IMG/VR virus record: IMGVR_UViG_3300005573_000052
Length of the DNA: 64,000 bases
DNA from: a virus
Reading direction: 5' to 3' (one strand)
Positions 1 to 53,429 of the stretch are shown here, in pieces. Numbering within the stretch: the first letter of the stretch is position 1; each line of letters begins with the position of its first letter. The position numbers and the translations under genes are program-made. The notes beneath the pieces were generated by a model. The model was not told where the DNA came from and did not search any database. It saw nothing but the letters and a program-made list of their open reading frames with translations.

Positions 1-167
1 TTGTTCGCGACCCAAAGGCGGCGGCACGTCTTGCCCAAGTAACCCTCCTTGCGTTTAATGGCTCGGCGACATACGCCGGACAACTCGGTGCGCCGGATGT
101 TCTGTGGGTCAGCAAAGTGGTAGTGGGTGAGTGGGGAGGCGAAAGGGCTTTTGGTGGATGTGCTCAT
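1..167 (-). CDS. hypothetical protein, 5' part (runs off window)
   Basis: ATG at 167, 10 nt downstream of promoter 178-207; frame open to base 1. Confidence 0.5.
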   Translation of the reverse strand, partial: MSTSTKSPFASPLTHYHFADPQNIRRTELSGVCRRAIKRKEGYLGKTCRRLWVAN

Positions 168-177
168 GGTAAAACAG

Positions 178-207
178 AGGTTAGCAGAGTAGCACAGGTG
201 AAGTCAA
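178..207 (-). promoter_or_regulatory. sigma70-like promoter
   Basis: TTGACT-18-TAACCT. Confidence 0.6.
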
Positions 208-224
208 GCCCTAAAATCGCCGTC

Positions 225-725
225 CTACCAAAGCGACTCGGAGAACAGCTCCGTATCCCCCTCGTGCCCGGGGAGCAACTGTCCATTCGCGCGGGCGAGA
301 GCCAGTCCCTCCACCCGGTCAACAAACCGGTTGCGGTTGGTCAGGAATCCCTGCGTGAACCCGGCCCCTACCCGTTTGGCGTTGGTTAACCGGATAACCT
401 CACGGATACAGTCGGGGTGGCGCGACCCGGTAAACAGCGTGTTGTCCGAGTCGCGCCGGATGGCGGCGGACGTAATCAGTTCGACTTGATCGCGCAGAGC
501 CCGATATTGGCCCCAGTTGATTGACTCGGCGATGGCGGAGGCAATACGCAGGTTGTCGGACTCGTCAACGCCCAGCGCGATTTGCTGAACTGGAGTGTCC
601 GCCTGCCCACGCACTAGCCAGACAGAACTCCCGTTGGAGTAATCCTTGCCATCCAATGGGATGCGGAGGACGGAGTAAGGCGACGGGATAGCGGGCGCAC
701 TGGCGGGGGTTATAGTTGAGGTCAT
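225..725 (-). CDS. phage hypothetical protein
   Basis: 166-aa ORF; C-terminal RH..I/QGFLTN..RFVDR.E.L.LA pattern typical of phage hypotheticals. Confidence 0.7.
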   Translation of the reverse strand: MTSTITPASAPAIPSPYSVLRIPLDGKDYSNGSSVWLVRGQADTPVQQIALGVDESDNLRIASAIAESINWGQYRALRDQVELITSAAIRRDSDNTLFTGSRHPDCIREVIRLTNAKRVGAGFTQGFLTNRNRFVDRVEGLALARANGQLLPGHEGDTELFSESLW

Positions 726-751
726 GGGTAAGTGGAGGAGATGACCAAGAG

Positions 752-850
752 TTACAACCCCGTGTAATCATCCGGCCCCGTAAACGGCGCAGCGAAGAAG
801 GTATAAACGCACCAGCCGATGAAGAACAGGAGGGTGAAGAAGTGAATCAT
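752..850 (-). CDS. small membrane peptide (32 aa)
   Basis: MIHFFTLLFFIGWCVYTFFAAPF..., downstream of promoter 902-931. Confidence 0.5.
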   Translation of the reverse strand: MIHFFTLLFFIGWCVYTFFAAPFTGPDDYTGL

Positions 851-901
851 GACGGGATTGGTGTGGATTGGATCGGATGAAATTGACGCAGATGAGCAAC
901 C

Positions 902-931
902 AAGGTAGCATAGCCAGCCTACCCGCGTCAA
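902..931 (-). promoter_or_regulatory. sigma70-like promoter
   Basis: TTGACG-18-TACCTT. Confidence 0.65.
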
Positions 932-942
932 CCCCAAAATCA

Positions 943-1875
943 TCAGCCCCGATTCGTGGCCTCGACGTAATCCAACACCGCTTTGATCTGGTCGCGCGAT
1001 ATGGTCGCGCCGGATGACAGACCAATATACGTCGCGGTCTGATTGCCCGGTTGCGTTTTGTCCATGGCGGAGAGAAAGTTCCGCAGCGCGTCAACCGAAA
1101 GGCTCACCCCGCCGAACATAACGGTATCCCCGCCCGTCTCATACTTGGCTTTCCGACCCCAGATTTCGGGCGTAAGCGGCGTGCTTAGCATACGGGTTAT
1201 TTCGCCAAACTGCGTTTCGGCGGAATAGCGGGGATAGGAGGGATAAACTTGGGGGGAAGGAATGTCCCAGTTGGTCAAGGTCATGGGTTTGAAATGCCCC
1301 GGGACTTCGACACGACAGACGACAATGTGACGGGCTTGCCGGAAAAATACGGGAGCCCCTTCATCTCCAGCCCAAGTAAACCCCTTGGCAAACAGCATGT
1401 TTTGCACCGTCCGGGACAGGGTTGTGTCGCCTTCTTGACTGCCCAGCTCAATGACGAAATTCGGAGGGTTGTTGGGTGGGGTGGGGGCATAGTTACCACA
1501 GGCCTCAACCGCACCATTGCTCTTTGTGACCTCCGCCCCGATAGACAGGGCCGCAGCCGCGTCGCCTGTTTTGGCGTAGTGCTGCATGCGGGCGTAGAGA
1601 ACGGGGTCGTCTTTGATGAGGCGGAGTACGGGAGCGGCAACCCAGCGAACAAGACCCGGAGAAAAAGATAAGGAAGCCGCCGGAGAAACCCATTGGCGTG
1701 TTCCAAATTGATCGGTTATACGGGTGCGAGAGTTCTCAGGCAATGCAAAGCTGTCAGCGGGAACTTGTTTCAGATTCTCGTGGTATCGGACCCCCACACA
1801 TGGATAAGGCGAAAGGTCCGGGTGATAGGGGTGACCGTTGAAGTCGAGAGAAAGGGAAGAGGTGGAAGTGCTCAT
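943..1875 (-). CDS. hypothetical protein (310 aa)
   Basis: long ORF on the majority strand; no motif recognised. Confidence 0.7.
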   Translation of the reverse strand: MSTSTSSLSLDFNGHPYHPDLSPYPCVGVRYHENLKQVPADSFALPENSRTRITDQFGTRQWVSPAASLSFSPGLVRWVAAPVLRLIKDDPVLYARMQHYAKTGDAAAALSIGAEVTKSNGAVEACGNYAPTPPNNPPNFVIELGSQEGDTTLSRTVQNMLFAKGFTWAGDEGAPVFFRQARHIVVCRVEVPGHFKPMTLTNWDIPSPQVYPSYPRYSAETQFGEITRMLSTPLTPEIWGRKAKYETGGDTVMFGGVSLSVDALRNFLSAMDKTQPGNQTATYIGLSSGATISRDQIKAVLDYVEATNRG

Positions 1876-1960
1876 GGGTGAAAGGATTGGATGGGGAGGG
1901 AGTGGAGGGGAGGATAATGGTAGAAAAACGGGTTGGAAATGTCAAGGGCGAATTTGGGAC

Positions 1961-2239
1961 CTATCTCATGTCGGACTCAAATTCCATGATAGCAGCCGAG
2001 TAGTTGACCCAGAGCCAGTCTAGGTCGTCGGGGCCGGTGAACGACTCGTCAATCTCGCAGAGCGGGCAATTGCCTAGGCTGGCCGCATATTCGGCCACCC
2101 GTTTCGCGCGGAAAGCGTCCGACCAGTTGTTGATCCAGCGCAGTATCATGGCGTTGCGATGGGCACGCAGAATGGCGTCTGTCCCGCCAAGGGCATCGGC
2201 GATAAGGCGGCGTTGCTCGTCGGGGTCGAAGGCACTCAT
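1961..2239 (-). CDS. hypothetical protein
   Basis: ATG at 2239 overlaps the upstream stop (ATGA). Confidence 0.6.
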   Translation of the reverse strand: MSAFDPDEQRRLIADALGGTDAILRAHRNAMILRWINNWSDAFRAKRVAEYAASLGNCPLCEIDESFTGPDDLDWLWVNYSAAIMEFESDMR

Positions 2240-2631
2240 ACCACCCTCTCCTTCTCCCACCCCGTCAAATCCTCTGGCACCACCACACCCAGCTCGCGCA
2301 AGGTCTCCGCCGTGACCGTGGAACCAACCGGGTGAACACCCAGCGGGCGAACGAGGTTGAACATGTGGATGATGCGGCGGTGCGACTCGGCAATCTCGGG
2401 TTCGTTGCGCATGTCCCAGCAGCCGAGGTAGGTGGCAGTGGGCTCAAAAGGAGCGGGTGAAGCAGCCAGCAAACGAGCTTCGCGCTCCAGCGCGGCGCGC
2501 TCGGCGGGCGAGTAGCCGTTCATGCGCGAGTCGGATTCGGCAACGGCATCGAGGGCTGATTGAACTAGGGGCGATGAAGCGGGGATGCTCATAGGAAGAT
2601 GACGTAGTTGGAGATTAAGGCTTGACCGCAT
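2236..2631 (-). CDS. hypothetical protein
   Basis: ORF in a tightly packed operon; start uncertain. Confidence 0.6.
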   Translation of the reverse strand: MRSSLNLQLRHLPMSIPASSPLVQSALDAVAESDSRMNGYSPAERAALEREARLLAASPAPFEPTATYLGCWDMRNEPEIAESHRRIIHMFNLVRPLGVHPVGSTVTAETLRELGVVVPEDLTGWEKERVV

Positions 2632-3073
2632 CCTGCATAATTGGGTCCAACTCTAGCGGGGCGACAAAGGCCAATGATGAGTTGTCGTGAAAGGTGGCTG
2701 TAGCAGGCAAGATAACAAACCAGCCACGCAACTTGGTTCCCGCCTTGAGGTCTTGGAGGAATGGGGAGTAGAGGACATACCGAGAGGGGGAACTTGTCAG
2801 ATTCTCCGAGACGACATAGCTGTTGCCACGGATGGTCTTGACATAGTTGTCCGCATGGGTTGCGCCAGCATAAGATATGGACTCCTCCACGACCAGATTG
2901 CGATAGACGGGTTCCTTGGCGTCAACTACCTTGGTCCGGGTTTCGATGACGGGGGAATAGGTAGAGCCGCGCAGAGAGGAGCGGATTTGCCATGCGGTGA
3001 CGAGGCTGACGCCTGCCGAGAGAAGGCACAGGGCGACGGAAAGGTGTTTGAGGAAGAGAGGAGGGGTGCTCAT
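2615..3073 (-). CDS. membrane-anchored hypothetical protein
   Basis: start at 3073 after promoter 3088-3117; N-terminal hydrophobic helix LSVALCLLSAGVSLVTAW. Confidence 0.65.
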   Translation of the reverse strand: MSTPPLFLKHLSVALCLLSAGVSLVTAWQIRSSLRGSTYSPVIETRTKVVDAKEPVYRNLVVEESISYAGATHADNYVKTIRGNSYVVSENLTSSPSRYVLYSPFLQDLKAGTKLRGWFVILPATATFHDNSSLAFVAPLELDPIMQDAVKP

Positions 3074-3087
3074 GAATGATGGGGATG

Positions 3088-3117
3088 AAGGTAACAGATA
3101 GGACGAGGCCATGTCAA
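3088..3117 (-). promoter_or_regulatory. sigma70-like promoter
   Basis: TTGACA-18-TACCTT; TGA in the -35 is the stop of 3114..3512. Confidence 0.7.
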
Positions 3118-3512
3118 CCCAAATCGCTCGGATGGACCCCAAACAACCGGGCCACTGGCTCGCGCAACCCGTCCCTCAGAGCCTTGATTTCCGCCTCCAA
3201 ATGCCGGATGCGGGCGTCTCGCTCGTCTTCGCCCTTGCGAGCCATGCGTTCGGCAGCTCCGTAAGCATCGTCGTCAACGTAGGAGCGCAGTTCGCCGTAA
3301 CCGCTCAGGCTGTAGCCGATAAGCTGCGCGAATTGCTGGCGGTCCTCCTTGGAGAACGGCAGGTCGGCCAGCTCGTTCATGCCGCAGCCACGCGCAAGGG
3401 AGTATTCGTAAAGGTGGCTGACAATGGCGTTCTCACGAAAGCGGAGAACTCCAGCAGAGTCCTTGCAGAGGGGCTGAATAGGATGGCGGGGAAGGGATTT
3501 GGAGGTGCTCAT
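3114..3512 (-). CDS. hypothetical protein with C-terminal coiled coil
   Basis: ATG 10 nt after promoter 3523-3552. Confidence 0.7.
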   Translation of the reverse strand: MSTSKSLPRHPIQPLCKDSAGVLRFRENAIVSHLYEYSLARGCGMNELADLPFSKEDRQQFAQLIGYSLSGYGELRSYVDDDAYGAAERMARKGEDERDARIRHLEAEIKALRDGLREPVARLFGVHPSDLG

Positions 3513-3522
3513 GATAGGGATG

Positions 3523-3552
3523 AAGGTAGCACAGGTGCCCCGGCCTTGTCAA
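3523..3552 (-). promoter_or_regulatory. sigma70-like promoter
   Basis: TTGACA-18-TACCTT; TGA is the stop of 3549..3752. Confidence 0.7.
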
Positions 3553-4470
3553 GCACGAATCTGCGCGGTCAGCGGGGCCAGCCCATACCAGTGCCCATCG
3601 CGCCCGATAACGGCGGTGTCCAGTTTGCGTGCCGTGTCGCCCACGGACCGGTCCCACCGGGTTACGAAGATGGAGCCATCGGTCTCCGTGTAATCATACT
3701 CGTAGCCCATCTCGCACAGTCGCGCATAGGGCTGTTCTTGAGCGGGGGTCATGGCTTGGGTGAGACGACGACCAACCGGCGGCGCAGGTCCTGTTCGCCG
3801 GTCTCCTGCACCTTGAACCGGTAGCCGTTGAGGCAGAGATGGTCGGCGGCGATGCAGACCAGCGCGGCCAGAACATGGGCCGGAAGACCCGACACCGACA
3901 CAACCTGTTCGTCGCTGTAAAGCTGGATGCCGAAGTCGTCAGTGACGAGGTCGTCTATGTTGGAGTAGCCGCCAAAGGTGCCGACACGGATGGGGGATGA
4001 ACCACGAAAGGTGGCGTGGATGGTAGGAGGCAGGAGGAGGGTTTTTACCTCCTCAATCTGGAACATGCCGCCCATGCCATCTTCACAGATGAACTCAAGC
4101 GTGCCTTCAGGGTAGTGCTCACTGGTCTCGGGGCCGACATAGACAGCGCGGCCTTTCCATGGAAGCCCCTTGTCATCAACGGATTCGATGGCGTAGGTTG
4201 CGCCGGGGATGAGGTCGGAGATAGTCATGACCCAATCCAAATGCGGCCCGACAAAACGAGCCAGTAATAGCGGAATGGTGGTGGTGGAAACTGGCTCCCC
4301 CGTTTCCTTTGCCAACGGTTCCGTAGCCAAATGCGCGCGCATTCCCGGAGACGGGCGAAGGGATTGCGTGTTTTGTAGGCCGGTTCAGCGGGGAGATACG
4401 GTCCGGCGGGATGAGTGTGTTTGGTCCATTTCATGGGTGTAGGCGAGACTTGGGAGGGAGATGAGTTCAA
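3549..4470 (-). CDS. three coupled hypothetical CDSs (3549..3752, 3749..4228, 4225..4470)
   Basis: successive ATGA overlaps. Confidence 0.55.
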
Positions 4471-5006
4471 TGGGTCCGATTCTGCGCAGCGGCGTTCATC
4501 AGTCCATCATACAGGTAGTTCCCCCGCATCGGCCCGACCTGTGTCCACCAGCGTGACCAAAACAGCTCTCGCGCGGCCAGCCGATAATCCCGGGCGCGAA
4601 TCGCGGCGCGGAATTTGGTCCACCCAATATAACCGGTTTGCCCGCAGGTCCAAACAAGATGAACCATGGTTAGGCGGACGCCGAAGGGTAGCCGGTCAAA
4701 ATCGGGTTCATCGCGGCGTAGGAAGGCCAAGGTGGACTCCAAGTCCTCGGAGTAGAACTGAGTCACCTCAGCCGTGGTATAGTGCTCCTTGGGTGGGCGG
4801 ATTCCGGCCCCCGTCAGGCGGTGGCCAATCCCGACCGTCCATTGCCGCCCGTTGTCTACATAGGGAACCAATCGGCTGCCCTCATAGACCAGCAGGGAGG
4901 GAAGGTAGTCGTCAGAGGGAGATTGGTTGGATGCCTGTGTCTGTGCGGGTGTAGATAGGGCGGAGAGAATCAGGGTGGCGAGGACTAGGAGGAGAGGGAT
5001 TTTCAT
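4467..5006 (-). CDS. T4-type (GH24) lysozyme with N-terminal signal peptide
   Basis: catalytic E-x8-D-x5-T in YEGSRLVPYVDNGRQWTVGIGH; C-terminal SRWWTQVG..R; leader MKIPLLLVLATLILSALSTPAQT. Confidence 0.85.
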   Translation of the reverse strand: MKIPLLLVLATLILSALSTPAQTQASNQSPSDDYLPSLLVYEGSRLVPYVDNGRQWTVGIGHRLTGAGIRPPKEHYTTAEVTQFYSEDLESTLAFLRRDEPDFDRLPFGVRLTMVHLVWTCGQTGYIGWTKFRAAIRARDYRLAARELFWSRWWTQVGPMRGNYLYDGLMNAAAQNRTH

Positions 5007-5023
5007 GGATGACGATGGAGCCC

Positions 5024-5053
5024 AAGGTAGCATGATTGCTAGGTGCTAGTCAA
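5024..5053 (-). promoter_or_regulatory. sigma70-like promoter of the lysozyme
   Basis: TTGACT-18-TACCTT. Confidence 0.65.
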
Positions 5054-5154
5054 GCAGGAAAAGATAAATTGGGTGGTTAGGCTGAGGCTGCCGGTTTATC
5101 AATCCGATCCTCACCAGCGTTCCTGAGAGAAGCGTCCCTCACCTGACTGCATAC

Positions 5155-5184
5155 ACCCTAGCACACTTGCCCCGCGCCCGTCAA
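5155..5184 (-). promoter_or_regulatory. sigma70-like promoter
   Basis: TTGACG-18-TAGGGT; TGA is the stop of 5181..5390; no ORF longer than 13 aa follows. Confidence 0.65.
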
Positions 5185-5711
5185 GCACTTTTCTGCGTTA
5201 TTTTCGTCCACCCTGCCCAAAACAGCTCCTCGGTCAATGCTGCCGCCTGAGCATCTAGTTCTAGCGCGTGCTCCTCAGCCTCGTGACGGGAGGGACCGGT
5301 GCGACGACTGGGCGAGCGCAACCAGTTCGCCTCGGCCACTAGGGAGTAGAATTGGACGACCGGGAGGGGTTGGGCGGATGGATGAGGCACGGATGGAAGG
5401 ATGGGGCAATCGGGTCACCCAAGTCAAGCCTCAAATGGCGGGGAATCGTCAATTGGCTCCGGGAAGGTCACGGGAGGACCGGCGAAGACAAAGGTGTCAG
5501 TCCATTCGGCTCGGACCACACGGCCCGTCATGGGGTCACGCTCCTTGACGAAGGCCCGGACATACCCGCGCTCCAACTGGGCCAAGTCCTCGGCGTGGCG
5601 GGCGGGCGCATTGGGGGCGTGAACAGCCAACCACTTGGCCAGCCGTTTTGCCCGCTTGGCGCGCGCGGCAGCTAGGCGGTCGTAGTCGTGTTGGGTAAGT
5701 TGGTCGGACAT
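5181..5711 (-). CDS. two small hypothetical CDSs (5181..5390, 5424..5711)
   Basis: ORF track; operon packing. Confidence 0.5.
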
Positions 5712-6154
5712 TGGTTATCACATGCCGAGTTCGCGGCCTCAAGCACCAATGTGTCAATGGCCCATTGGGGCACACGAAGCCCGACATTGCGCAGTTCAAT
5801 CAGCCGCGCGGCGCAGGCTAGAGCGGTCGGGTCGCTATAGGTGGCACAGCCATGGGGACCCGGGATATCCCGGCGAGGCGTATGGCGGATGAGCCAACTG
5901 CGCAATCTGCCATACCAGATCATGATCCACCAGTAGGCATTTGCCGCCAACTCGGCCAGACGGTTGGAATAGACAATGCGAAACGGGTCGCGCTCAACCT
6001 TGGCTCCGAAGGGCAGAGTGATGGGACTAAGGTCCGGGAGAACCGGGAAGAGGAACCGACTGCCCGCGACATGGGTGGTATAGCCGCCATCAACGTGCTC
6101 ATACACGTAGACATCGCACCGGAAATTGTCGGGACTGAAACGGCAGTAGCTCAT
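5672..6154 (-). CDS. phage hypothetical protein
   Basis: MSYCRFS...CDVYVYEHV.GGY.THVA start overlaps the upstream stop. Confidence 0.65.
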   Translation of the reverse strand: MSYCRFSPDNFRCDVYVYEHVDGGYTTHVAGSRFLFPVLPDLSPITLPFGAKVERDPFRIVYSNRLAELAANAYWWIMIWYGRLRSWLIRHTPRRDIPGPHGCATYSDPTALACAARLIELRNVGLRVPQWAIDTLVLEAANSACDNQCPTNLPNTTTTA

Positions 6155-6660
6155 TTGGCCTCCTGTGCCCCGGGCGTGCCTGTCTCGCCCGCCACCCGAT
6201 AAGCAAACAGCCCGCGCCGGATATACTTGCGCTCCACGGTCAACCCACCAAATCGCGGCTTGCGCAAATCGCGCAACCGGGCACTGATGCTGGCCTCGGG
6301 GTCTCCGGTCAGAGCACTGAGTTCGCCCAACGTCCGCCACTGGCCATCGCTCATCAAAGTCCGAACCCGCGCAAGTTGGCGCGCTAGGCGGCTATTGTCG
6401 CGGGCATGGTCCGCGGTGGAACCGTCAAAAACGGCGGGATAGGCTGCGGGCAGCGCGGATTGGGTGAGAGAGGGCTGGGACGTAGACACGGGAAGGGTGG
6501 GAAATAAAGGACCCAAAGAAGACTGGAATAGTGGAGGAACACAGCCCTCTTCGCAATGCCGACAATAGACCACGAGCTGGTCCGGGAACTGGATAGAGGG
6601 GTAGACCTCCAACCACCGGTCGGATTTGCAGGTCGGGCAGAGGGGGCGGGAAGAGGTCAT
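6151..6660 (-). CDS. Zn-ribbon + winged helix-turn-helix protein
   Basis: CPTC...CRHC; WRTLGELSALTGDPEASISARLRDLRK. Confidence 0.65.
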   Translation of the reverse strand: MTSSRPLCPTCKSDRWLEVYPSIQFPDQLVVYCRHCEEGCVPPLFQSSLGPLFPTLPVSTSQPSLTQSALPAAYPAVFDGSTADHARDNSRLARQLARVRTLMSDGQWRTLGELSALTGDPEASISARLRDLRKPRFGGLTVERKYIRRGLFAYRVAGETGTPGAQEAK

Positions 6661-7016
6661 AGGGAATCGTCCCATTTGCCTAGTGCTCTCAGGAAGGCTT
6701 CGGCGCGTTGGGCGGCGGTGGCGTGGCAATAGTCAAACGCTGTTGCCCCATTCCACAGCATGTCACTTCGGTTTAGGTCATTGAGTATATGTCTGAGGCG
6801 TTCAACGAACTCATGGCGTTGTTCCCGCGTCAACACCTTCTCCGCCTCATGCATAGCGTTGAGGTCGGAGAGGTAGTCGGGAGGACCCTTGGACCACATT
6901 TTGTATCCTTCGGGACTTTTCCACTCATAAGGATCGCCACCCCTTGGGTCTATCCAAGTCCAACGACCCAATCCGCACGCCTCCGCAATCGCTATCCGTT
7001 GTGCTTCGGGGGTCAT
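6657..7016 (-). CDS. PEAQRIAIA-family paralogue 1 (ABA-sandwich-like)
   Basis: shares MxPEAQRIAIA..CG, PxY..xLxAMHEAE and ATAAQRAEAFLR..GKW with three genes at 41097-42087. Confidence 0.75.
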   Translation of the reverse strand: MTPEAQRIAIAEACGLGRWTWIDPRGGDPYEWKSPEGYKMWSKGPPDYLSDLNAMHEAEKVLTREQRHEFVERLRHILNDLNRSDMLWNGATAFDYCHATAAQRAEAFLRALGKWDDSL

Positions 7017-8054
7017 GACGATGTCTCCTTAACCAATGCCCGATAAGCCGCCCGTGCCTTGCGACAGGACGGCAGGAAAGACCAGTGGCCACCCCATGGC
7101 TGATTCAGGACAGCGTCAATGGCCTCGTCGGCGGTATAGTGTGGCTTACCTACGGCTTCGTAATCAGATTCCTCGTCCAATCTCATCATCACCCAGCAGA
7201 CTTCCTCGTCACGCGCATGGGCAATATAGGCACTGTGGGCGACCAGCCAGTCCTTGCGGGCAGTGACTTGGGCCAGCTCCCGTTCCAGTTCTCGTGCGAA
7301 ATCGGCCTCAACCCATCCGCCGTCCCGGCACTTGCGCATGGTGGCACCGTTCCATGTGTAGAATAGCTCATGCTCTGCTGCGTCAGTGTGCGGCGTTTGG
7401 CTGGTTCTGGGGGTGTTGGTGTTCATGGAAGGGGAGTTAAGCAGAAAGGCTGGGGTGGAGTCAAGCGCAAAAGGCAAAGATACCGGACTTTGGCTTCCGT
7501 TTTCGCCCGTGCCACGCAGTGCGGGCACACGAAAGATCGGAGATAGTGGAGCGAACCCAAGGTATGCCACTCAGGGTCGCTCGGTATGCACCAATCCACC
7601 CGACCGGCAGAATACAGACGAACGAGTGGGGCGCCCTTCCGCCCAAGGGCCAGCGTATAGCGCCCATGACCCGAATCATCGGGATACCATCTCCACCGCG
7701 CGAACAGGCGGACACGGAGGCGGAAAATGAGACTGGACAAGAACAGGCGGGTTGTCATGGCGCATCGCCCTCCAGCGCGCGAACTGCGGCGAGGCGCAAT
7801 TTTTCATACCTTTCCTCCCTTGCGTCCAACTCGCGCGACAGGGCGGCGTAACGACTTTCCAGCTCATCTCGTTCACGCTGCAACTCGTCCACCGCCCCGA
7901 ACAAGGCCCGATTGGCCCGTGCGTTGGCAATGGAGCTATCCATGCGGGTCATTTCGGCGAAGGTCTCATCCATGTCGGCATGAAGGCCGCGAATGGACCA
8001 TGAGAGGGGCGGAGAAAGGAGGAGGTAGCGGAGGATGGCTAGAAAGGACGACAT
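7013..8054 (-). CDS. three hypothetical CDSs (7013..7426, 7423..7758, 7755..8054)
   Basis: ATGA overlaps; coiled-coil segments. Confidence 0.55.
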
Positions 8055-8077
8055 AGACTGAGATGAGGGCTAGACCG

Positions 8078-8107
8078 ACTCTAGTGCGTTTATGCTACCG
8101 GTGTCAA
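8078..8107 (-). promoter_or_regulatory. sigma70-like promoter
   Basis: TTGACA-18-TAGAGT. Confidence 0.7.
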
Positions 8108-8110
8108 GCT

Positions 8111-8428
8111 TTAATTCGGTCTCGCCCCTTTTAACTCTCTCAACCGCCTGAGACTGCCGGTGCGGGTCACAACCCCGTCTACCACGGCATCAAACTGGTC
8201 AATCCGTCCATGGACAGATCGGCGCAGAGACCAGTGGGTTTCGCCCCGGTCGGCCGAGTAAGTCACGCCTTCACGGACAATTTGCCCACGGGCATCATCA
8301 AGAGCCCGGCGGCGCAATGTGTCGGCATCGGCCCCGTAAGTAGCCACCCGTTTGGCGAACTTGGCGGCGTTCCAATGGCGGGAAACCTTGGAACGCAATG
8401 ACTTAGGGATGTGATTAGGAAGGCTCAT
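8111..8428 (-). CDS. basic hypothetical protein
   Basis: 105-aa ORF; the mini-ORF MTTSTS (8425..8445) overlaps its ATG. Confidence 0.6.
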   Translation of the reverse strand: MSLPNHIPKSLRSKVSRHWNAAKFAKRVATYGADADTLRRRALDDARGQIVREGVTYSADRGETHWSLRRSVHGRIDQFDAVVDGVVTRTGSLRRLRELKGARPN

Positions 8429-8454
8429 GAGGTGCTAGTCGTCATATTCCTTTG

Positions 8455-8688
8455 TTAGCCACTGACTGCCGTGGGCTCTGAAAGAAGTCCTGCGGCATAG
8501 AAGTTGTTGGGGTGTCCCGACACCGTTGCGGCGGTTTCGAGTTTGAATGGCAGTCCGTGCGCGAGCGTAATTATTGTGCCCGGCTGGAGCGTGCATCGCG
8601 CCTCGTGGCTAACAATGGCATCACAGCGCAACGAGGCCGTCCGTCCTGCCGTCGTGCGCTTTTTCGTTTTCGATTGCTTGGTTTTCAT
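8455..8688 (-). CDS. cassette 1 hypothetical protein (77 aa)
   Basis: ATG in the attC loop; stop TAA inside core site GGCTAAC. Confidence 0.6.
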   Translation of the reverse strand: MKTKQSKTKKRTTAGRTASLRCDAIVSHEARCTLQPGTIITLAHGLPFKLETAATVSGHPNNFYAAGLLSEPTAVSG

Positions 8689-8739
8689 GGAGAAAGTTTG
8701 TCCGCGTTCTGGCCTCGTGGCTGACTGCCGAGGTTCGGC
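8607..8739 (+). repeat. attC-like site B
   Basis: GGCTAAC-10-CAGC(G)CA(A)CGAGGCC ... GGCCTCGTGGCTG-9-GTTCGGC. Confidence 0.8.
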
Positions 8740-8960
8740 TTAATCGGGTAGAAGGCAGTCAGGTTCCGCGCCACGGCCCGCCCGAAGTCGTCATTCCGTA
8801 GTTGTCGAAGGGTTTTGGCTCGCAGGTCTCTTTCCGCCGAGCGCGGGAAAAAGTAGAGCCAGCGCCATGCGCGACGAACCGCCGAACCCGCCGCCACTGC
8901 CAATGCAGCAGCGCGACCAACGAGCCTGCGGCGTCCAACGGATTTAGTCAGGGGTGGCAT
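8685..8960 (-). CDS. cassette 2 Arg-rich hypothetical protein (91 aa)
   Basis: ATG at 8960 in the attC C stem; stop overlaps the next ATG (ATGA). Confidence 0.5.
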   Translation of the reverse strand: MPPLTKSVGRRRLVGRAAALAVAAGSAVRRAWRWLYFFPRSAERDLRAKTLRQLRNDDFGRAVARNLTAFYPIKPNLGSQPRGQNADKLSP

Positions 8961-8980
8961 GGCAGGTCTATTTGTTAGCC
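8881..8980 (+). repeat. attC-like site C
   Basis: GCCGAAC-9-CTGCCA(A)TGC ... GCATGGCAG-8-GTTAGCC. Confidence 0.75.
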
Positions 8981-9360
8981 GCCTGAACAGACGCGCCGAC
9001 TTCCAGCGCCTTTCTGGCGATGTCGCCGAAGTCTCGTTGGCTGCTTGCGTCGCCATATTCGGAAAGCTCCGCGATGTCGTCCAGCGCAGCGCGATACTCT
9101 CCAATTGCCGTCACGAGACAGCCGAAGTTTTTCTCGGCCAGTTTTTCCGCCAAGAAGCGGTGCGCGATATTTTCAAGCACGGTGGCGGCTCTGTGCAGTG
9201 TGAGCGTTACAGGGTGGCCTTTCGGCTGAAATTCTTCTCGCGCCCATTCGCGCAGATTTTCTGCGACGTAAGAAGCCTCGGCTAACAAAGCGTCACAGCC
9301 AACGCCCTTGCTTAGGGCTTCGACTTCCGCTGATAGTGTTCCTGTGTTTTGATTGCTCAT
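8968..9360 (-). CDS. cassette 3 hypothetical protein (130 aa)
   Basis: ATG in the attC D loop; N-terminal VGCDALLA is encoded by the attC arm. Confidence 0.65.
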   Translation of the reverse strand: MSNQNTGTLSAEVEALSKGVGCDALLAEASYVAENLREWAREEFQPKGHPVTLTLHRAATVLENIAHRFLAEKLAEKNFGCLVTAIGEYRAALDDIAELSEYGDASSQRDFGDIARKALEVGASVQAANK

Positions 9361-9408
9361 AGAGATTGTCCTTTTCCTGTCGGGCGTGGCTGATCGCTGG
9401 CGTTCGGC
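9280..9408 (+). repeat. attC-like site D
   Basis: GGCTAAC-9-CAGCCA(A)CGCCC ... GGGCGTGGCTG-9-GTTCGGC. Confidence 0.8.
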
Positions 9409-9626
9409 CTGAAGAAAAGCCCTTGAGGGCCGCAGTAATCGCCTCGCGCTTGGTGGATGAGCAGTCCGTAGCCGGCGGCGAAATCAACCTCGCCATCCTC
9501 AAAGCTACGCATCTCGCGCATACATTTTCCCTTGAGGTAATGGGTGCAGTCAACGCACAGCCGAACCAACTCTCCACTGCCAACGCGATTGCGCGGCTTT
9601 TTTGGTTTAGTAGGTGACTTATTCAT
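9357..9626 (-). CDS. cassette 4 Cys-rich hypothetical protein (89 aa)
   Basis: CVDCTHY...C...CG; ATG in attC E; ends NASDQPR...SL inside attC D. Confidence 0.65.
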   Translation of the reverse strand: MNKSPTKPKKPRNRVGSGELVRLCVDCTHYLKGKCMREMRSFEDGEVDFAAGYGLLIHQARGDYCGPQGLFFRPNASDQPRPTGKGQSL

Positions 9627-9652
9627 CGCGTGGCAGATTTCGGACGTTCGAC
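9560..9652 (+). repeat. attC-like site E
   Basis: GCCGAAC-10-CTGCCA(A)CGCGAT ... ATCGCGTGGCAG-9-GTTCGAC. Confidence 0.8.
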
Positions 9653-9777
9653 AAAGAAGGCTCCAGTTCTTGGAGCGCTTGCTCTGGAGTTGGAGTAAAA
9701 CGGTCCAAGCCCATTGGCTCAGCAGAGACCATGGGTGAAACCGTAAAGCCCAAGGGGGTTGAGAGGGAGTCTTTCAT
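9619..9777 (-). CDS. leader ORF (52 aa) reading into the cassette array
   Basis: ATG 9 nt after promoter 9787-9816; stop just past the cassette 4 ATG. Confidence 0.5.
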   Translation of the reverse strand: MKDSLSTPLGFTVSPMVSAEPMGLDRFTPTPEQALQELEPSLSNVRNLPRDE

Positions 9778-9786
9778 ATCGCCCCT

Positions 9787-9816
9787 ACCCTAGCCCATTT
9801 GAGGCGCGCCTGTCAA
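9787..9816 (-). promoter_or_regulatory. sigma70-like promoter upstream of the cassette array
   Basis: TTTCGCGC-TTGACA-18-TAGGGT. Confidence 0.75.
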
Positions 9817-9838
9817 GCGCGAAAATGCGCCTTCTGCC

Positions 9839-10390
9839 TCATTCCAACTCTGATCGCAACATCCACAGGTCCTTGTCGATGGCCCGGAGATAGCCAATCG
9901 TCATGTCTTGGGTCTGCAAATCGCCCGCCGCCGTGCACGCCGCCTGCAAGATGAGCAAATTGGTCTTGACCTGCTCCAGTGCGTCCAACACGCCCGCGAT
10001 CCAGTCGTTCGCGCTGTATGGCGGTATCATCACGGGGAAATTCGCCATGGTTTTGAAGGCCGATAAATCAGCCGGGGCATACATGCCCAGTTGGCGGAGG
10101 CGTTCGGCCAGCTCGTCTACCCGGACAAAGGAATCCTCATACAGATGACCGAACTGCTTGTGCAAGGACCTGAAACTCAGGGTCTTGTCAAGGTTCCAGT
10201 GTGCATTCTGGGCGAAGGCCGCGAAGGAGTAGGAATCGGCGAGACACTGGATAAGGCCGCGCAGCACGTCTTCGCTGGCCCCGGCCAGAGCCTGCTCGGG
10301 GTCCTGAATGACGATGCGGTTGGCGAGGACCGAGTAGGAGGCAAAAGAGGTGTGCTTAGGAGCCGTGGGGGCGGAGACGGGAGTGGACAT
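9839..10390 (-). CDS. dps: Dps / ferritin-like DNA-protection protein
   Basis: AHWNL..TLSFRSLHKQFGHLYE...VDELAERL ferroxidase signature; probable start 10390. Confidence 0.85.
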   Translation of the reverse strand: MSTPVSAPTAPKHTSFASYSVLANRIVIQDPEQALAGASEDVLRGLIQCLADSYSFAAFAQNAHWNLDKTLSFRSLHKQFGHLYEDSFVRVDELAERLRQLGMYAPADLSAFKTMANFPVMIPPYSANDWIAGVLDALEQVKTNLLILQAACTAAGDLQTQDMTIGYLRAIDKDLWMLRSELE

Positions 10391-10472
10391 GGCGGAAGGG
10401 GTGGAGAGAGATGGGGGGATTAGATGGATAGGATATACCCTGCTACCCCCTAATACACCCGTCCATATAGTC

Positions 10473-10649
10473 CTAATCCCGGCGTTCCCGGTTAACAACC
10501 CACCAAAGCAGCGCGAAAGCCCAGATAACCGGGCCATAGACCCACACGGGACACCACTTGGGGGCGGTCCGGGGTGCCACAGCGCGCCAAAAACCGATGA
10601 GAGACCACAGGAGCAGAACTAGGGCGATGTAGGGGAGGTAGGTGGTCAT
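10473..10649 (-). CDS. small two-helix membrane protein (58 aa, not in ORF track)
   Basis: MTTYLPYIALVLLLWSLIGFW...VIWAFALLWWVV; TAATG overlap. Confidence 0.6.
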   Translation of the reverse strand: MTTYLPYIALVLLLWSLIGFWRAVAPRTAPKWCPVWVYGPVIWAFALLWWVVNRERRD

Positions 10650-11563
10650 TATGAGGGCTCTCCGCCTGTCTCGTCCCGCATGACGCTGGTAAGTGCCTTC
10701 CCGATGACCTTCCCACTCGCCTCGGTTACCGTCTTAGTCGTCTCCATCGCCTCCTTGAGTTGCGCCCACGCCTTCTCCGCCGCCGCCTTGGGGTCAATCC
10801 CCGCCGCGCGCAAATCCGCGTCAATCTGTTCCGGGGTCTTGGCATCCACCTCGCGCCAAATCTGCTCGGCCTCGATGTGGAACGACAGGTCCCAGATGAT
10901 GGAGACGAGGTCGGAGATTAGGTTAGAGACCGAGTAGTTGGGGTTGGCGGCGCGACGGCGGGCAAAAACCTCGCGGGGTGACTGCGTCTCGTCAATGTCG
11001 GCGAGAATGGCTAGATGGCCCGGGTCATCCAGAATGCCGGTGCCCTCAAACCGTGCGATGAACTGAGCGCGGGCTTGGGCGAGACGGGCGACATCGTCTG
11101 CCGGGGGTGTCGCAGGAGTGGTAGTGGGAGTAGGATCGGTCATGGGAAAAGGGGATTAGCTGGAGGACCCGTTAAGATTTCCGTCCATCTTAGAAGTGGA
11201 GTCCGGGAAAAGAGGCGGGTGAGGACGATTGGTATAGGCCGAGTCGGATGGGATATTGAAGAACCCGATCCGTTGCCCCATCGCCGCCTCCTCATCTGTC
11301 AACCCATCATACGCCCGTCCGCCCGCGTCGCGCGCCCAGATGGTGCCATCGTTCGTGGGGTTGAGCTTGACGCCCAGTTTGAGGAGGGTGCGGGTGTGAT
11401 CGTTGAAGAGGCTGGTGACGTAGCTCTGCCGTCCATTGGCGTAACGGCGAGCCATCCAATGGAGGTCTTGGGCGATACAGCGCAGGGCATCGTTCTCGGC
11501 ACGGAGGGCGGATAACTCCTTGGTCAGTGCGGTGCGAGATGGGGCGGGAGACTTGGTCGGCAT
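10649..11563 (-). CDS. two hypothetical CDSs (10649..11143, 11156..11563)
   Basis: ORF track; downstream of promoter 11583-11612. Confidence 0.6.
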
Positions 11564-11582
11564 AGTAGTGGCGATAGACAGA

Positions 11583-11612
11583 ACCCTAGCACAGTTGCCC
11601 CGGTCGTGTCAA
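11583..11612 (-). promoter_or_regulatory. sigma70-like promoter
   Basis: TTGACA-18-TAGGGT; TGA is the stop of 11609..11935. Confidence 0.7.
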
Positions 11613-12798
11613 GCCTGTTCCGCCGCAACCAGTGCCGCGAATTTGGCCTTGGCGCGGGGCAAATCGTCCGCCGGGTAGGTCCATCCGTGCGTTCCCCACT
11701 CAGAATTGCTCGGCCCCACCTCCCGCCGTGGCACATCCTTGCCCATGATGGTCGTGGCTTCGGCTACCCGGATGCGGATAACCTCGTAAGCCAGACATCC
11801 CGCGCCCGGGCGCAACCGCTGCTTGAACAGGGCTACATTGCCCTCGCGCATCACCAGCTCGTAGTGAAACCCGTTCTTGGTGAAGGTGGTGCCGAGGGGG
11901 CGGGCGGGGATGGGGGTAGCGAGGGGAGCGATCACAAAATAAGGGGAGGTAGAGTTAAGTGTTCAACCGTCCCATCAGCCGCTTATCCAGCACCGTCACC
12001 ATGTCTTGGCTGAGCCCCAACAGCACGATCAGCTCGGCGAACGAGTCGTAGGGCACCGGTTCGGCGGTCGGGGTGTTGGAGATAGAATCACCTAGGCGGG
12101 TAAACTGGCCTGACGAGTTGGTGTGGGCGATGCCGGGTTGGCTATAGAGCGTGCCCTCAATGAACAACGCGTCAACCGTCAGCTCGCCCGGCACGAACAG
12201 CATCCCGAACGAGCGCGGGTGATAGCGGCGGTCAGGTGGCACGGGCGTGAATTCGGTGGACATGGCAACTGGCCTCCTCAGTGGATATAACCCAGCGCAT
12301 ACCACTCGTCGTAGCAGTGGGGAGCCCGGAAACGGAGGGGAGAGCTATCCAGTGCTTGGGTATCGGGTGGAGCTGGGCCGAGGCCAGACGCGCCGGTTGC
12401 CGTAGCCCGCATTCCAGTAACTCTTTACCGCCAGCCAGCGCGCCTTGGGGGCGGACTCGGCAAAAGCGACGCACGTCATGTCGCCGATGGAGACCTTGAA
12501 GGCGAACAGCGGAGGCTGGGTATCTGCCGGAAGGTCGGGAGGAGGAAGGAGGGGGTCGTTGCTCACGGATAGAGTCTCACCAGAACTTGACGACGAAGTG
12601 GGCTACGACGTAGCCGAGACCGGCAAGGAGAGCTACCTGTGCAAGAATGGCGAGAAGGACGAAGCTAGAGAATAGACTTGGAAGCTTGAACTTGGAGGGA
12701 CGGGAAGAGATGGGGTCCATGGAGAAAAAAAGGCGGGAACAGAAACAGGAGAGAAAATTGGGGCGTTGGGCTTCCGAGGAAGCAATCACGGGAATCAC
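11609..12798 (-). CDS. four small hypothetical CDSs (11609..11935, 11955..12305, 12345..12566, 12577..12798)
   Basis: ORF track; the last has a C-terminal transmembrane helix; starts uncertain. Confidence 0.55.
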
Positions 12799-12918
12799 GC
12801 CCCGAACCCGGTATATGCCAATCTACTTACCCAGTAGTCGGGCAAAGTGGTTGGTTGGACAAGCTGGCGATTCGCGCGGGTGAACAAGGTCACACCCAAG
12901 CAGAACCGCACAGTGCTA

Positions 12919-13017
12919 TCACTGGTTACCAGCGGGAGCGGCAGCCTCGACCTTGGCGGTCTTGGCCTTGGTCGCTTTCGCGGACTTCGTGGTCTTGGTG
13001 GATTTGGATTTGGCCAT
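12919..13017 (-). CDS. Lys/Thr/Ala-rich histone-H1-like micro-protein (32 aa)
   Basis: MAKSKSTKTTKSAKATKAKTAKVEAAAPAGNQ; TGATAG double stop; GC3-rich codons; own promoter. Confidence 0.65.
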   Translation of the reverse strand: MAKSKSTKTTKSAKATKAKTAKVEAAAPAGNQ

Positions 13018-13067
13018 GGGATGGTGTGGGTTGAGTTAGCTAGATGACTAGCGAGGTAACAAGGGAG

Positions 13068-13097
13068 ATAATAGCGCGGTTGGGGCGGGAGTGTCAA
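13068..13097 (-). promoter_or_regulatory. sigma70-like promoter
   Basis: TTGACA-18-TATTAT. Confidence 0.75.
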
Positions 13098-13100
13098 GCC

Positions 13101-13457
13101 TCAATCCGCCACGAGACGCAATTCCTCGGGCGTATATTCGACCTGCCTGAGGGACTCATAATCACCCGGCGGAAACGTGATAGGGGAATGCTCTTGGTGG
13201 GTGAGGGTGGAGCCTTGGGGGGAGATGACGCGAATTGCGTCCGCCACGATTGCCTGTTCATCATCCGCAAAGGCTACCGCGCCGCCATCGGTAAAGGTGT
13301 GGTGATGACCGGTTTTCTCGCCAAGGGCCAGCGTGGGCGATTTGATTTGGCGGGAGGTGGAGGACGGAATAGAGTCAATGCGACGCAGAAGCGTGTCGCC
13401 CTGACGGGCATGGGAGCCGAGGACGGTTAGGGGGAGGGCATTTGGATGGATGTTCAT
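13101..13457 (-). CDS. conserved phage protein (RQGD...LA.GE.TGH.H family, usual neighbour of DUF6745)
   Basis: ARQGDTLL, LALGEKTGHHH, LTHQEH..I, RQVEY. Confidence 0.75.
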   Translation of the reverse strand: MNIHPNALPLTVLGSHARQGDTLLRRIDSIPSSTSRQIKSPTLALGEKTGHHHTFTDGGAVAFADDEQAIVADAIRVISPQGSTLTHQEHSPITFPPGDYESLRQVEYTPEELRLVAD

Positions 13458-13492
13458 GATGGGGGTAGGAGGAGTGGTAATAGATCAGGAGT

Positions 13493-13522
13493 ATAGTAGC
13501 CAGTTTAAGCCTCAAATGTCAA
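13493..13522 (-). promoter_or_regulatory. sigma70-like promoter
   Basis: TTGACA-18-TACTAT; TGA is the stop of 13519..14541. Confidence 0.65.
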
Positions 13523-14541
13523 GACTCAAATGCGGGACAGTAGTCGCGATGATCAGCAAAGGCCAGTTTGCCATCTTTGGTCCGCCAAGTGGATGCAACT
13601 GCCTGCCACGCCGTGCTAACGCCGCCATAAGCCTTGGGGTCAACGCGGATGAAGTAGTCCTTGAAGGACCCGTCTGGCTCGGGTGTGCTATTGACCACCT
13701 TGACCACCACGAGGTCCTCGTCGCCGGGCAGAGACTTGCGGTATAGAGTGCCCCAGTCGTCGCTTTGCACGGGCTTGAGCCCGGATTTCATGATATACCG
13801 CTCCTGTCCATACGACTCAAGCATGACGCGGCGAACCTCGGCATTGGATTGAGCGTCAATGTCACGCCAGTCGAACTGCTTGAACACGATGTCTTCGGTG
13901 ACTTGGACGCCCTTGAGGAAGTAGTATTGGGCGGGGCTATCGGGCCATGACACGGCGGGGCCAGTTTCGCAGTGCAGGCGGTTGTCCTTGATGGATAGAG
14001 AGGGAGATGCGCAGCAGACCACCTCGCGCCCGGTCACCCAATAGAGCCAGAGCCCTGCATCTCGGGCCTTGAGAAAAGGCAACCAGATACCTGCATACTT
14101 AATTGCCTCGGGTTTGGATGAACAATTAAACCATGCTGCGGACCGTGCTGCGGACCGTGCTGCGGACCATGCTGCGGACCATGCTGCGGACTCTGCTGCG
14201 GACTCTGCTGCGGACCGTGCTGCGGACTCTGCTGCGGACCATGCTGCGGACCGTGCTGCGGACTCTGCTGCGGACCATGCTGCGGACTCTGCTGCGGACC
14301 GTGCTGCGGACCGTGCTGCGGACCATGCTGCGGACCGTGCTAACTTAGTGGCATAGGCGTATCCAGCTTGGGCGTCTTCTACCCATTTGATGGGCAACGG
14401 GTCCATCCCTAGCGCCGCGAAATGCTCGGCGAAACACTGCTCAATGACAGCCTTGTCGCAACGGTGCTCGTGTTTAGGGATGCGAGCGAGCGCGTCGATG
14501 ATCTCTTGGGTCTTGGTGGTGAAAATGGGTTTGGTTGACAT
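13519..14541 (-). CDS. DUF6745-like protein with SAAx tetrapeptide repeat
   Basis: RLHCETGPAVSWPD, YFLKGVQV, NAEVRRVMLE.YG, VKVVNSTPEPDG..KDY.I.V. Confidence 0.75.
   Translation of the reverse strand: MSTKPIFTTKTQEIIDALARIPKHEHRCDKAVIEQCFAEHFAALGMDPLPIKWVEDAQAGYAYATKLARSAAWSAARSAARSAAESAAWSAAESAARSAAWSAAESAARSAAESAAESAAWSAAWSAARSAARSAAWFNCSSKPEAIKYAGIWLPFLKARDAGLWLYWVTGREVVCCASPSLSIKDNRLHCETGPAVSWPDSPAQYYFLKGVQVTEDIVFKQFDWRDIDAQSNAEVRRVMLESYGQERYIMKSGLKPVQSDDWGTLYRKSLPGDEDLVVVKVVNSTPEPDGSFKDYFIRVDPKAYGGVSTAWQAVASTWRTKDGKLAFADHRDYCPAFES
14131..14340 (-). repeat. 12-bp tandem repeat, 17 full units plus a partial, TCCGCAGCA(TGG/CGG/GAG)
   Basis: 9 invariant bases plus one variable codon (W, R or E). 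Confidence 0.95.
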
Positions 14542-29238: not shown

Positions 29239-30063
29239 TTAAATGGAGGAATCTGAAGGGTGGGGTATTGGTCTGGACCTAAGACGAAAACGTCGATTGG
29301 CAACGCTTGATTCTGAACGCCCGAGAAGGGTCGCCGCCTTAGCCACACTATGTGAGCGCACTATCTGGTCTTCGTCGGTCGTCCACGCCTTGGAGGAGAC
29401 CACCACTCGCATTGTGGCGGGTCGAGTCCATGCCATTATTTCCGTAGCCTTCTTGCGTTTGCGCTCAAGAGCCAAACATCCCTCCGAGTAGAGGACATTC
29501 GCGACCTTGACCGCGTCCTCGCAGAAAACAACGATGTTGTAGGCTCGGTCTCGGACGTTACGATTCAGGACTTTGGTCTTCCCTGTCAAACCGTGGAGAA
29601 AGCGTTCGTAAGCCACCGCCATGTCTTCGCTTGTTGTCACCAAGGATAGGTAAGGGATTCCGACAGCGGTAAAACCGAGAGACCCATCTGCGTCAAAAAA
29701 CCCCCTCCAATAATCGGGGGCAGAAAAGGGAACCGTAGGTGGACTAACTGTCAAAGATTTCTTGCCAGCGGGCACTCCAAGTGCTTCGATCTGTTCTCGA
29801 AAGCCCTGACGACACATGCGCCACGTTATGCTGTCGTAAGCCTCGGAAAAATTGGTCGAACGATGACGATAGGTGAGACTACCTTCGGGGAACATCGCAT
29901 GGAATCGGTGAAGGATATCCTCATCTCGAACGTTAAGCTCGATTTCTAGCTTGCCCTTGTTAGGATTGTCCTTCTGCCGGTAGAGGTGTCCGTCTCCTTG
30001 GATGAAGCCGAAAAAATAAGCGTGAGCGGGATTGGTGAGGTCAATGACGTGAGGTGTCTCCAT
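29239..30063 (-). CDS. double-motif LAGLIDADG homing endonuclease, free-standing downstream of rtcB
   Basis: AYFFGFIQGDGHL and YWRGFFDADGSL; AT-richer. Confidence 0.85.
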   Translation of the reverse strand: METPHVIDLTNPAHAYFFGFIQGDGHLYRQKDNPNKGKLEIELNVRDEDILHRFHAMFPEGSLTYRHRSTNFSEAYDSITWRMCRQGFREQIEALGVPAGKKSLTVSPPTVPFSAPDYWRGFFDADGSLGFTAVGIPYLSLVTTSEDMAVAYERFLHGLTGKTKVLNRNVRDRAYNIVVFCEDAVKVANVLYSEGCLALERKRKKATEIMAWTRPATMRVVVSSKAWTTDEDQIVRSHSVAKAATLLGRSESSVANRRFRLRSRPIPHPSDSSI

Positions 30064-53278: not shown

Positions 53279-53334
53279 ACCCTCCAATACACCTAGAGAG
53301 TAGAGGATTTGATACAATCCTACAAAAATCTTCA

Positions 53335-53429
53335 CCCGCCTTTTCCTTGCCGGGCTCGTCAAGGTTGAGCAGAGACGCGCCTCCGATGCTGTAGGTGCTG
53401 GTGAAGACGGGGGTGACGGAGGATGTCAT
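53335..53429 (-). pseudogene. orphaned original 5' end of the PHP gene
   Basis: MTSSVTPVFTSTYSIGGASLLNLDEPGKEK, GC3-rich, versus the AT-rich MITPVFTSTYSIGGHSLLTLDEPEKSK at 52325. Confidence 0.8.

Follow-up and report, generated by a model that had tools for sequence, protein, structure and literature searches.

Published attC sites have a conserved T at position 23/24 and a 6-bp stem between extrahelical bases, range in length from 57 to 141 nt, and follow RYYYAAC/GTTRRRY as a consensus, not as a requirement (PMC5027507). Such sites are also known from phages. According to a published survey, phages contain integrons as well as 17 clusters of attC sites lacking an integron integrase (CALINs; Qi et al. 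2023, PMC9892861). The survey lists 21 isolated phages, mostly with 2–3 attC sites, and five of the six phage attC sites tested there were recombined by IntI1 (PMC9892861). Here we analyze a 64,000-nt stretch of viral DNA (IMG/VR record IMGVR_UViG_3300005573_000052; hereafter the window), in which positions 8454–9652 very probably form a four-cassette integron array without an integrase of its own, carried by a large phage. We class the array as a CALIN and not as a complete integron because four sites lie within 1.2 kb and no tyrosine recombinase was found in the 64 kb. An initial annotation, made from the sequence alone, had read the segment as an integron-type cassette array on a phage; the present analysis confirms the underlying observation and supports that reading.

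A second system built on structured repeats is the set of promoter-early stem-loop (PeSL) modules that Arbiol, Comeau and Krisch reportedly described in T4-type phages in 2010. As in PeSL modules, the repeats studied here flank small accessory open reading frames (ORFs) in hyperplastic phage regions, supply expression signals and allow shuffling by recombination from one repeat to another. PeSL modules differ in that they are not known to have AAC/GTT crossover triplets, private complementary ends or a linked tyrosine recombinase; their exchange is homologous rather than site-specific.

Results

Four attC-type sites form one repeat family

The array is built on four imperfect palindromes, all oriented on the minus strand, which belong to one repeat family and are absent elsewhere in the window. 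The first, attC1 (8607–8739, 133 nt; R'' 8607–8613, R' 8733–8739), has inner and outer stems of 8 bp and 4 bp, respectively, and a 3-nt bulge whose first base on the minus strand is T; over its full length it shares 74% identity with positions 430–560 of the related contig L003. attC2 (8881–8980, 100 nt; R'' 8881–8887, R' 8974–8980), with a 6-bp stem, a bulged T and a 3-bp inner stem, is the weakest of the four sites. In attC3 (9280–9408, 129 nt; R'' 9280–9286, R' 9402–9408), the arms 9296–9307 and 9382–9392 have one bulged base, and the stem shows compensatory changes in the L003 copy. attC4 (9560–9652, 93 nt; R'' 9560–9566, R' 9646–9652) has a 6-bp stem, a bulged T and a 6-bp inner stem, and is 80% identical to the first attC of L011. 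All nine heptamers listed in the initial annotation were found at their positions when recounted by hand, and the attC geometry that it had described was recovered as a 6-bp stem, a spacer of 8–10 nt and one unpaired A on the plus strand, corresponding to T on the minus strand.

The general geometry was drawn from 38 parsed elements of the window and its relatives. On the sense strand, a heptamer ending in AAC is followed by an 8–10-nt spacer, a 6-bp stem, an inner stem of 3–11 bp and the loop; the return arm carries a bulge starting with T in most elements, then an 8–10-nt spacer and a heptamer starting with GTT. AAC and GTT triplets occupy the outer ends of the palindrome in 4/4 window sites and 36/38 parsed elements. 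The succession of heptamer, 9–10 nt, 6 bp and T is present in 20 of the 38 elements, and 12 further elements belong to a subtype in which a 4-bp stem precedes a 3–4-nt bulge starting with T. Counted from the 3' heptamer, the bulged T lies past the 6-bp stem, at position 23 or 24. Both stems show compensatory changes, and 12 G·T pairs occur on the sense strand. By hand reading, the 8–10-nt spacers hold a covarying 4-bp mini-helix between 2–3 unpaired bases, compared with 5–6 unpaired nt per arm in the usual definition of attC; the R-to-L distance is canonical in total, and its partition, again read by hand, is not clearly so. Site length is 93–133 nt in the window and 58–197 nt across the family, with loops of 3–141 nt, and the longest family sites exceed the published range of 57–141 nt.

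A strict structural detector picked out these four elements and no others in the window, each of them on the minus strand, and zero elements on the opposite strand at any locus; the elements are confined to the arrays and to the sense strand. Applied as a positive control to plasmid R100, the detector found the aadA1 attC of the In2 integron, solely on the bottom strand and with an identical layout. Because this control shows the same layout on the bottom strand, the minus strand of the window corresponds to the bottom strand, an assignment that agrees with the one made earlier and that the geometry also supports. Each of the four heptamer types is rare, with 4 to 12 copies per 64 kb, two copies of each falling within this 1.2 kb, and 3/4 and 3/3 of the window-wide matches to the inner-arm motifs lie in the array. 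The four elements can be aligned although their reading frames differ, and their likeness is therefore at the nucleotide level, not the protein level.

The two ends of each cassette are complementary

The sites delimit four cassettes on the minus strand. Cassette 1 (8455–8733, 279 bp), nearest to an attI-like site, is bounded by G^TT at 8454|8455 and 8733|8734; cassette 2 (8734–8974, 241 bp) also has G^TT bounds; cassette 3 (8975–9402, 428 bp) has a body whose homology to L003 and L008 stops exactly at 8974; and cassette 4 (9403–9646, 244 bp) lies farthest from the attI-like site. The array is taken to end with cassette 4 because the R' heptamer 9646–9652 has no complementary partner further on. 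As the initial annotation had pointed out, the R''/R' pairs are mismatched in place, only 5–6 of 7 positions matching, and the heptamer that opens each cassette is the exact complement of that cassette's own R'' in 4/4 window cassettes.

To extend this comparison, 39 junctions in eight arrays were curated from coordinates and set against 200,000 partner shuffles. At 33/39 junctions the 3' heptamer was exactly complementary to the 5' heptamer of the element that follows, or to the terminal site, and at 6/39 the match covered six of seven positions; in-place pairs were exact in only two cases in this set. Shuffled partners gave a mean of 4.9 exact pairs and a maximum of 14. The pattern of G^TT recombination claimed earlier for the window thus holds at 33/39 junctions, a count that 0/200,000 shuffles reached. 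Complementarity extends outwards by 0–6 nt into the cassette body and stops at the inner edge of the triplet. The matched ends also covary: one pair in L014 has the triplets themselves altered, to GAT and ATC, and a 12-bp helix is kept with differing sequences in the homologous last cassettes of L014, L018 and L011. This matched-ends pattern is that left by circular cassettes recombining between G and TT.

The array adjoins an attI-like terminal junction (8429–8460, minus strand), which consists of a variable heptamer (8454–8460) and a conserved non-hairpin sequence (8429–8453) reaching the start codon of the neighboring gene, g0. The first six bases of the heptamer belong to cassette 1, and the heptamer is the exact complement of R'' in attC1. 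When nine phages were aligned upstream of g0, a conserved non-hairpin sequence was seen from AAC onward, and the sequence before AAC was unalignable. The four variable bases before AAC match R'' of the last cassette in all curated arrays but L011, in which one of the four differs, at a G·T position. The initial annotation had proposed to examine whether relatives vary at G^TT (AA^C); in these nine phages, conservation begins exactly at AAC.

Related arrays are followed by integron integrases in three viral contigs

The same elements occur in arrays of 3 to 10 or more cassettes on over 20 other viral or metagenomic contigs. In L003, which was reached through a homologue of the cassette gene g3, ten elements lie in 4 kb, each around a gene start, and compact copies of 58–65 nt with loops of 3–12 nt are also present; like the window array, the L003 array ends upstream of a g0 homologue. 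With g0 as anchor, eleven more loci were obtained, most of them with arrays, and the two-arm pattern, used independently of g0, yielded 24 further viral loci, many with 3–7 elements. L017 carries TerL and portal genes, G022 has TerL, and G021 has tail proteins.

A tyrosine recombinase was present in 5/15 of the records found via the element pattern. In L047, L046 and L051, the recombinase lies on the sense strand directly past the array, with ~40 nt separating it from a terminal heptamer that is complementary to the last R''. Over the full model length, these proteins scored 312, 274 and 267 bits, respectively, against NCBIfam TIGR02249 (integron integrase), for which the cut-off is 265 and the IntI1 control gave 509 bits; their Xer scores were only 100–135. 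The position of IntI directly after the arrays in these three contigs identifies the element family as the attC family of real integrons on viral contigs. A search for IntI beyond the window, which the initial annotation had suggested, was positive in three other viral contigs, after arrays, and negative in the window and in eight related g0-type records. Like the checks on variation at G^TT and on matched ends, this outcome favors the earlier reading.

In the L051 contig, tail and virion proteins adjoin intI; scans of G009, G012 and G021 for the Terminase_6N, Phage_portal and HK97 capsid families gave no hit. A Y1 HUH transposase was not found, and a serine recombinase was seen in only one relative, far from the array. 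A further contig, L050 (IMGVR_UViG_3300044612_003464), which carries a GpA terminase, has at 32.5–33.3 kb a 5'-truncated IntI covering model positions 99–315 only. An attC-like element overlaps the start of this IntI ORF, as though a cassette site had cut intI short or become joined to it.

Close relatives differ by whole cassettes. L015 and L017 are 91–98% identical in terminase, portal and upstream genes, with 96–98% protein identity in the flanks of the array, and have zero cassettes in common. One cassette body is common to L003 and L018, where 89% identity runs right to the cassette's final base, and L018 has one extra cassette between this shared cassette and g0, as expected for insertion at the attI-proximal end.

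Two further loci are described here for their sequence arrangement. At L025 10626–12855, six near-identical 89-nt elements with identical heptamers are spaced by ~430 nt, and in this homogeneous sub-array in-place and neighbor pairings are indistinguishable. A g3 homologue with 87% amino acid identity is located at L001 6001–6390, on a complete 44-kb phage contig, with no attC arms and with unrelated flanks; the homology spans ATG to stop exactly. This gene is either a cassette gene outside any cassette or a pre-capture state.

Most cassette genes start inside the attC sites

The cassette genes lie on the bottom strand of attC, that is, the minus strand of the window, and are co-directional with the leftward transcription of the phage. 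The ATG of g1 (8455–8688, 77 amino acids), which is also a public gene call, is in the attC1 loop, and its TAA stop falls on the crossover heptamer. Relatives of g1 share only the attC-encoded first 33 residues (two other proteins), apart from one full-length homologue. The doubtful g2 (8685–8960, 91 amino acids) begins with an ATG in the 5' arm of attC2, runs 48 nt into cassette 1 and is absent from public gene calls. The start of g3 (8968–9360, 130 amino acids), ATG together with a ribosome-binding site, is in the attC3 loop, and its homologues are 87% identical in L001 and 69–70% identical in L003 and L008. For g4 (9357–9626), the product is 89 amino acids from ATG 9626 or 54 amino acids from ATG 9521; the latter has a ribosome-binding site and corresponds to the public gene call.

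Similar arrangements are seen across the family. A long ORF starts inside attC in 27/39 cassettes, in the loop and 40–60 nt past the 5' heptamer; most of the genes have both a ribosome-binding site and their ATG there. Such ORFs read through L'' and R'' and mostly stop 12–69 nt into the next element, and neighboring ORFs often overlap as ATGA. This departs from the classical layout, in which a top-strand ORF ends before or in its own attC; that layout is a usual and not a defining feature. The attC sites thus encode a generic N-terminal leader, examples being the first 33 residues of g1 and a 28-residue extension of a methyltransferase in L009.

This methyltransferase belongs to a pair of N6_N4 DNA methyltransferases encoded in a cassette next to g0 (L009 7122–7964 and L016 538–1245). 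The 28-residue N-terminal extension of the L009 protein is attC-encoded, and the L016 relative has neither the extension nor the hairpin; both ORFs cross the AAC junction into the conserved terminal site. The products of g2, g4 and a putative g5 have similar C-terminal tails of the form (P/S)-N-x-x-x-(Q/L)-P-R, encoded at window positions 8716–8739, 9385–9408 and 9629–9652. The tails are alike because the upstream ORF always ends in the 5' half of attC, which is read in a single frame as its C-terminus.

A conserved gene occupies the place of intI

Directly after the array lies the conserved gene g0 (8111–8428, minus strand, 105 amino acids), at the point where complete integrons of this family carry intI and in the same orientation. 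Homologues with 44–59% identity follow the terminal site in L003, L009–L011, L013–L018, L032 and L043. No sequence match to g0 was found in Pfam, PHROG or PDB, nor any relative in 185,579 prokaryote genomes. The AlphaFold2 (AF2) model, with a predicted local distance difference test (pLDDT) score of 72, begins with two helices, continues with a four-stranded sheet and closes with a further helix; a fold search with it returned nothing significant, the weak best matches being PC4/Pur-alpha-like single-strand-binding folds (Z 3.8–4.7). The neighbors of g0 vary between phages, and arrays also occur without g0. A recombinase function was dropped, as g0 has no family or solved relative and no significant fold match and as arrays exist without it. 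Assignment as a small terminase was likewise rejected, as g0 precedes TerL only in the L017 group and has other neighbors elsewhere. A role of g0 in the cassette system, as an accessory, is speculative.

The phage carrying the array

The window comes from a large phage, with genes for the DNA polymerase III (PolIII) alpha subunit, a DnaB-like helicase, a PurZ-like adenylosuccinate synthetase, NAMPT, RtcB and a CCA-adding enzyme, and nearly all of its genes are on the minus strand. The public 15-kb contig L002 is 99.96% identical to window positions 1–14258, and the g3 protein is also on record in a 181-kb contig. The array region had no blastn match among INPHARED phages, an exact-word search of the window against viral contigs gave no match, and an Rfam scan of the window gave no family match.

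Directly upstream of the array, at 9839–10537 (minus strand), lies a gene for a ferritin/Dps-like protein (Pfam Ferritin; PHROG "DNA binding protein"), with 183 amino acids in the public gene call versus 232 here; used as a synteny anchor, it gave no relatives among viral contigs. The adenylosuccinate synthetase homologue (35066–36391, minus strand) matches a PHROG annotated as a PurZ-type enzyme. In view of this match, and of genes for PolIII alpha and a PHP domain in its vicinity, one may ask if the phage DNA contains 2-aminoadenine. ORFs with LAGLIDADG-like (29239–30063, minus strand) and GIY-YIG (52322–53362, minus strand) domains are likely homing endonucleases, and both are located amid replication and RNA-repair genes. 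One other ORF in the window gives a strong signal for a helix-turn-helix like that of resolvases or of sigma-70 region 4, without a recombinase catalytic domain.

Discussion

Based on these findings, we propose a plausible history for the array. An integron integrase would have recognized the folded bottom strand of circular cassettes and inserted them one by one. Crossover at AA^C (G^TT on the plus strand) would leave the matched cassette ends, and the newest cassette would be the one next to the attI-like site, the place of attI being taken by the conserved non-hairpin site that the array adjoins upstream of g0. The integrase may have come in trans, from a host integron, a prophage or another phage infecting the same cell; it may also be encoded elsewhere in a genome of ~181 kb, or may have been lost. 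The suggestion in the initial annotation that the integrase comes from elsewhere is plausible. With a ribosome-binding site and an ATG inside its loop, attC could double as a portable translation-start module.

Several observations weigh against an integron array of this kind. No tyrosine recombinase was found in the 64-kb window by an ORF scan and by tblastn with IntI1, which bears out the earlier statement that IntI is missing there, and eight related g0-type records, of which four are at least 90% complete, likewise gave no integrase; the cassettes can therefore be called only putatively mobile in this phage. No window heptamer fits the full GTTRRRY/RYYYAAC consensus, the GTT/AAC triplets alone fitting it. 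Folded in isolation, single strands of the four sites are no more stable than dinucleotide shuffles, on either strand (z −1.0 to +0.85), a result to be expected because their loops are 35–74 nt of coding sequence. The ORFs cross cassette boundaries, which is awkward for independently mobile units. Moreover, attC cores and cassette bodies reassort independently between phages, as in window cassette 3, whose body matches L003 and whose attC matches L015; crossovers at R' alone are thus insufficient, and exchanges near R'' or homologous recombination between conserved arms must contribute. Finally, the one indication that the G009 and G012 contigs are from phages is their classification in IMG/VR.

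Part of this evidence would also fit a relic, that is, an array assembled by an integron integrase in an ancestor or another genome, whose g0-bearing lineage now turns over by homologous recombination between attC arms. Such a history would agree with the missing integrase in the window and in the eight g0-type records, with breakpoints of core and body reassortment in the conserved L''–R'' segment, with the g3 homologue that L001 carries without any attC, and with degenerate elements such as those with GAT and TTT triplets in L014. However, the perfect match of ends at 33/39 junctions, together with their compensatory changes, speaks for selection that still maintains R-box pairing; the differences between near-identical phages are of whole cassettes, exactly at AAC; and an integrase could still act in trans. 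We consider a relic possible, though rather unlikely.

Two other explanations dispense with recombination sites altogether. The elements could be regulatory hairpins of mRNA or single strands at translation starts, with genes shuffled by homologous recombination in the manner of PeSL modules. The start codons and first 15–25 codons contained in the loops, the ATGA overlaps joining neighboring ORFs, the 12 G·T pairs on the sense strand and the reassortment of cores and bodies would suit this explanation, but it does not account for the invariant AAC/GTT triplets, the bulged T at 23/24, the private complementary cassette ends, the compact 58–65-nt copies without a gene start or the true integron integrases that follow arrays at a matched terminal heptamer; we regard it as highly improbable. 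As for chance palindromes in GC-rich coding DNA, picked post hoc from among very many scanned windows, their fold energies would be expected to be no better than those of shuffles, as is the case here. Yet the motifs are confined to 1.2 kb, the family recurs in over 20 other contigs and no shuffle reached the observed junction count, and we give chance practically no weight.

Beyond the integron array in the window itself, a broader picture may be put forward, tentatively and with more doubt than confidence. A phage family extending from ~40-kb lambda-like phages to the ~181-kb phage may run its own mirror-image integrons as platforms for swapping accessory genes, with attC as a translation-start module and the genes expressed by read-through phage transcription. 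In lineages without intI, g0, a possible PC4-like single-stranded DNA binder, might keep the attI-like site usable by an integrase supplied in trans.

Integrons are regarded as a bacterial device, and here an environmental phage family has long arrays, some contigs including an integrase. Such arrays offer a concrete site-specific mechanism for part of the small-gene mosaicism of phages, and through them cassettes could pass from phages to bacterial integrons or back. For integrons, the literature searched describes no such design, in which polarity is reversed and the recombination site contains the start codon. The design predicts that the bottom strand is the coding strand, that attC mutations affect both recombination and translation, and that new cassettes enter beside g0.

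The elements share with classical integrons, especially sedentary chromosomal ones, the R box, a spacer of canonical total length, the 6-bp stem, the extrahelical T at 23/24 and the variable loop. Similarly, the sites are co-oriented, the cassette ends are mutually complementary, the terminal site is not a hairpin, and in relatives a TIGR02249 integrase lies directly beyond the terminal site, in bottom-strand sense. As in chromosomal integron arrays, the attC sites resemble one another. Unlike classical integrons, the window family has its genes on the bottom strand, hence co-directional with intI; starts and N-terminal codons lie in the attC loop and ORFs end in the neighboring attC; the carrier is a phage; and the array described here has g0 where intI would be. 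The window heptamers also deviate from RYYYAAC/GTTRRRY outside the triplets.

The phage CALINs of the published survey (PMC9892861) are likewise clusters of two or more attC sites that lack an integrase. They occur in both temperate and virulent phages and include DNA methyltransferase cassettes, to which the N6_N4 methylase cassette of L009 corresponds. The present arrays differ from them in belonging to an uncultured phage family, in reaching 10 or more cassettes, in their fixed locus with a conserved terminal site, in the occurrence of complete intI–attI–array versions and in their mirror gene polarity. The literature searched gave no account of a family of this size, of a fixed locus with its conserved terminal site, of complete versions with intI on phage contigs or of mirror polarity with the start in attC. 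An attC array in a phage is thus of a known kind; this one stands out by the extent of the family and by its mirror design.

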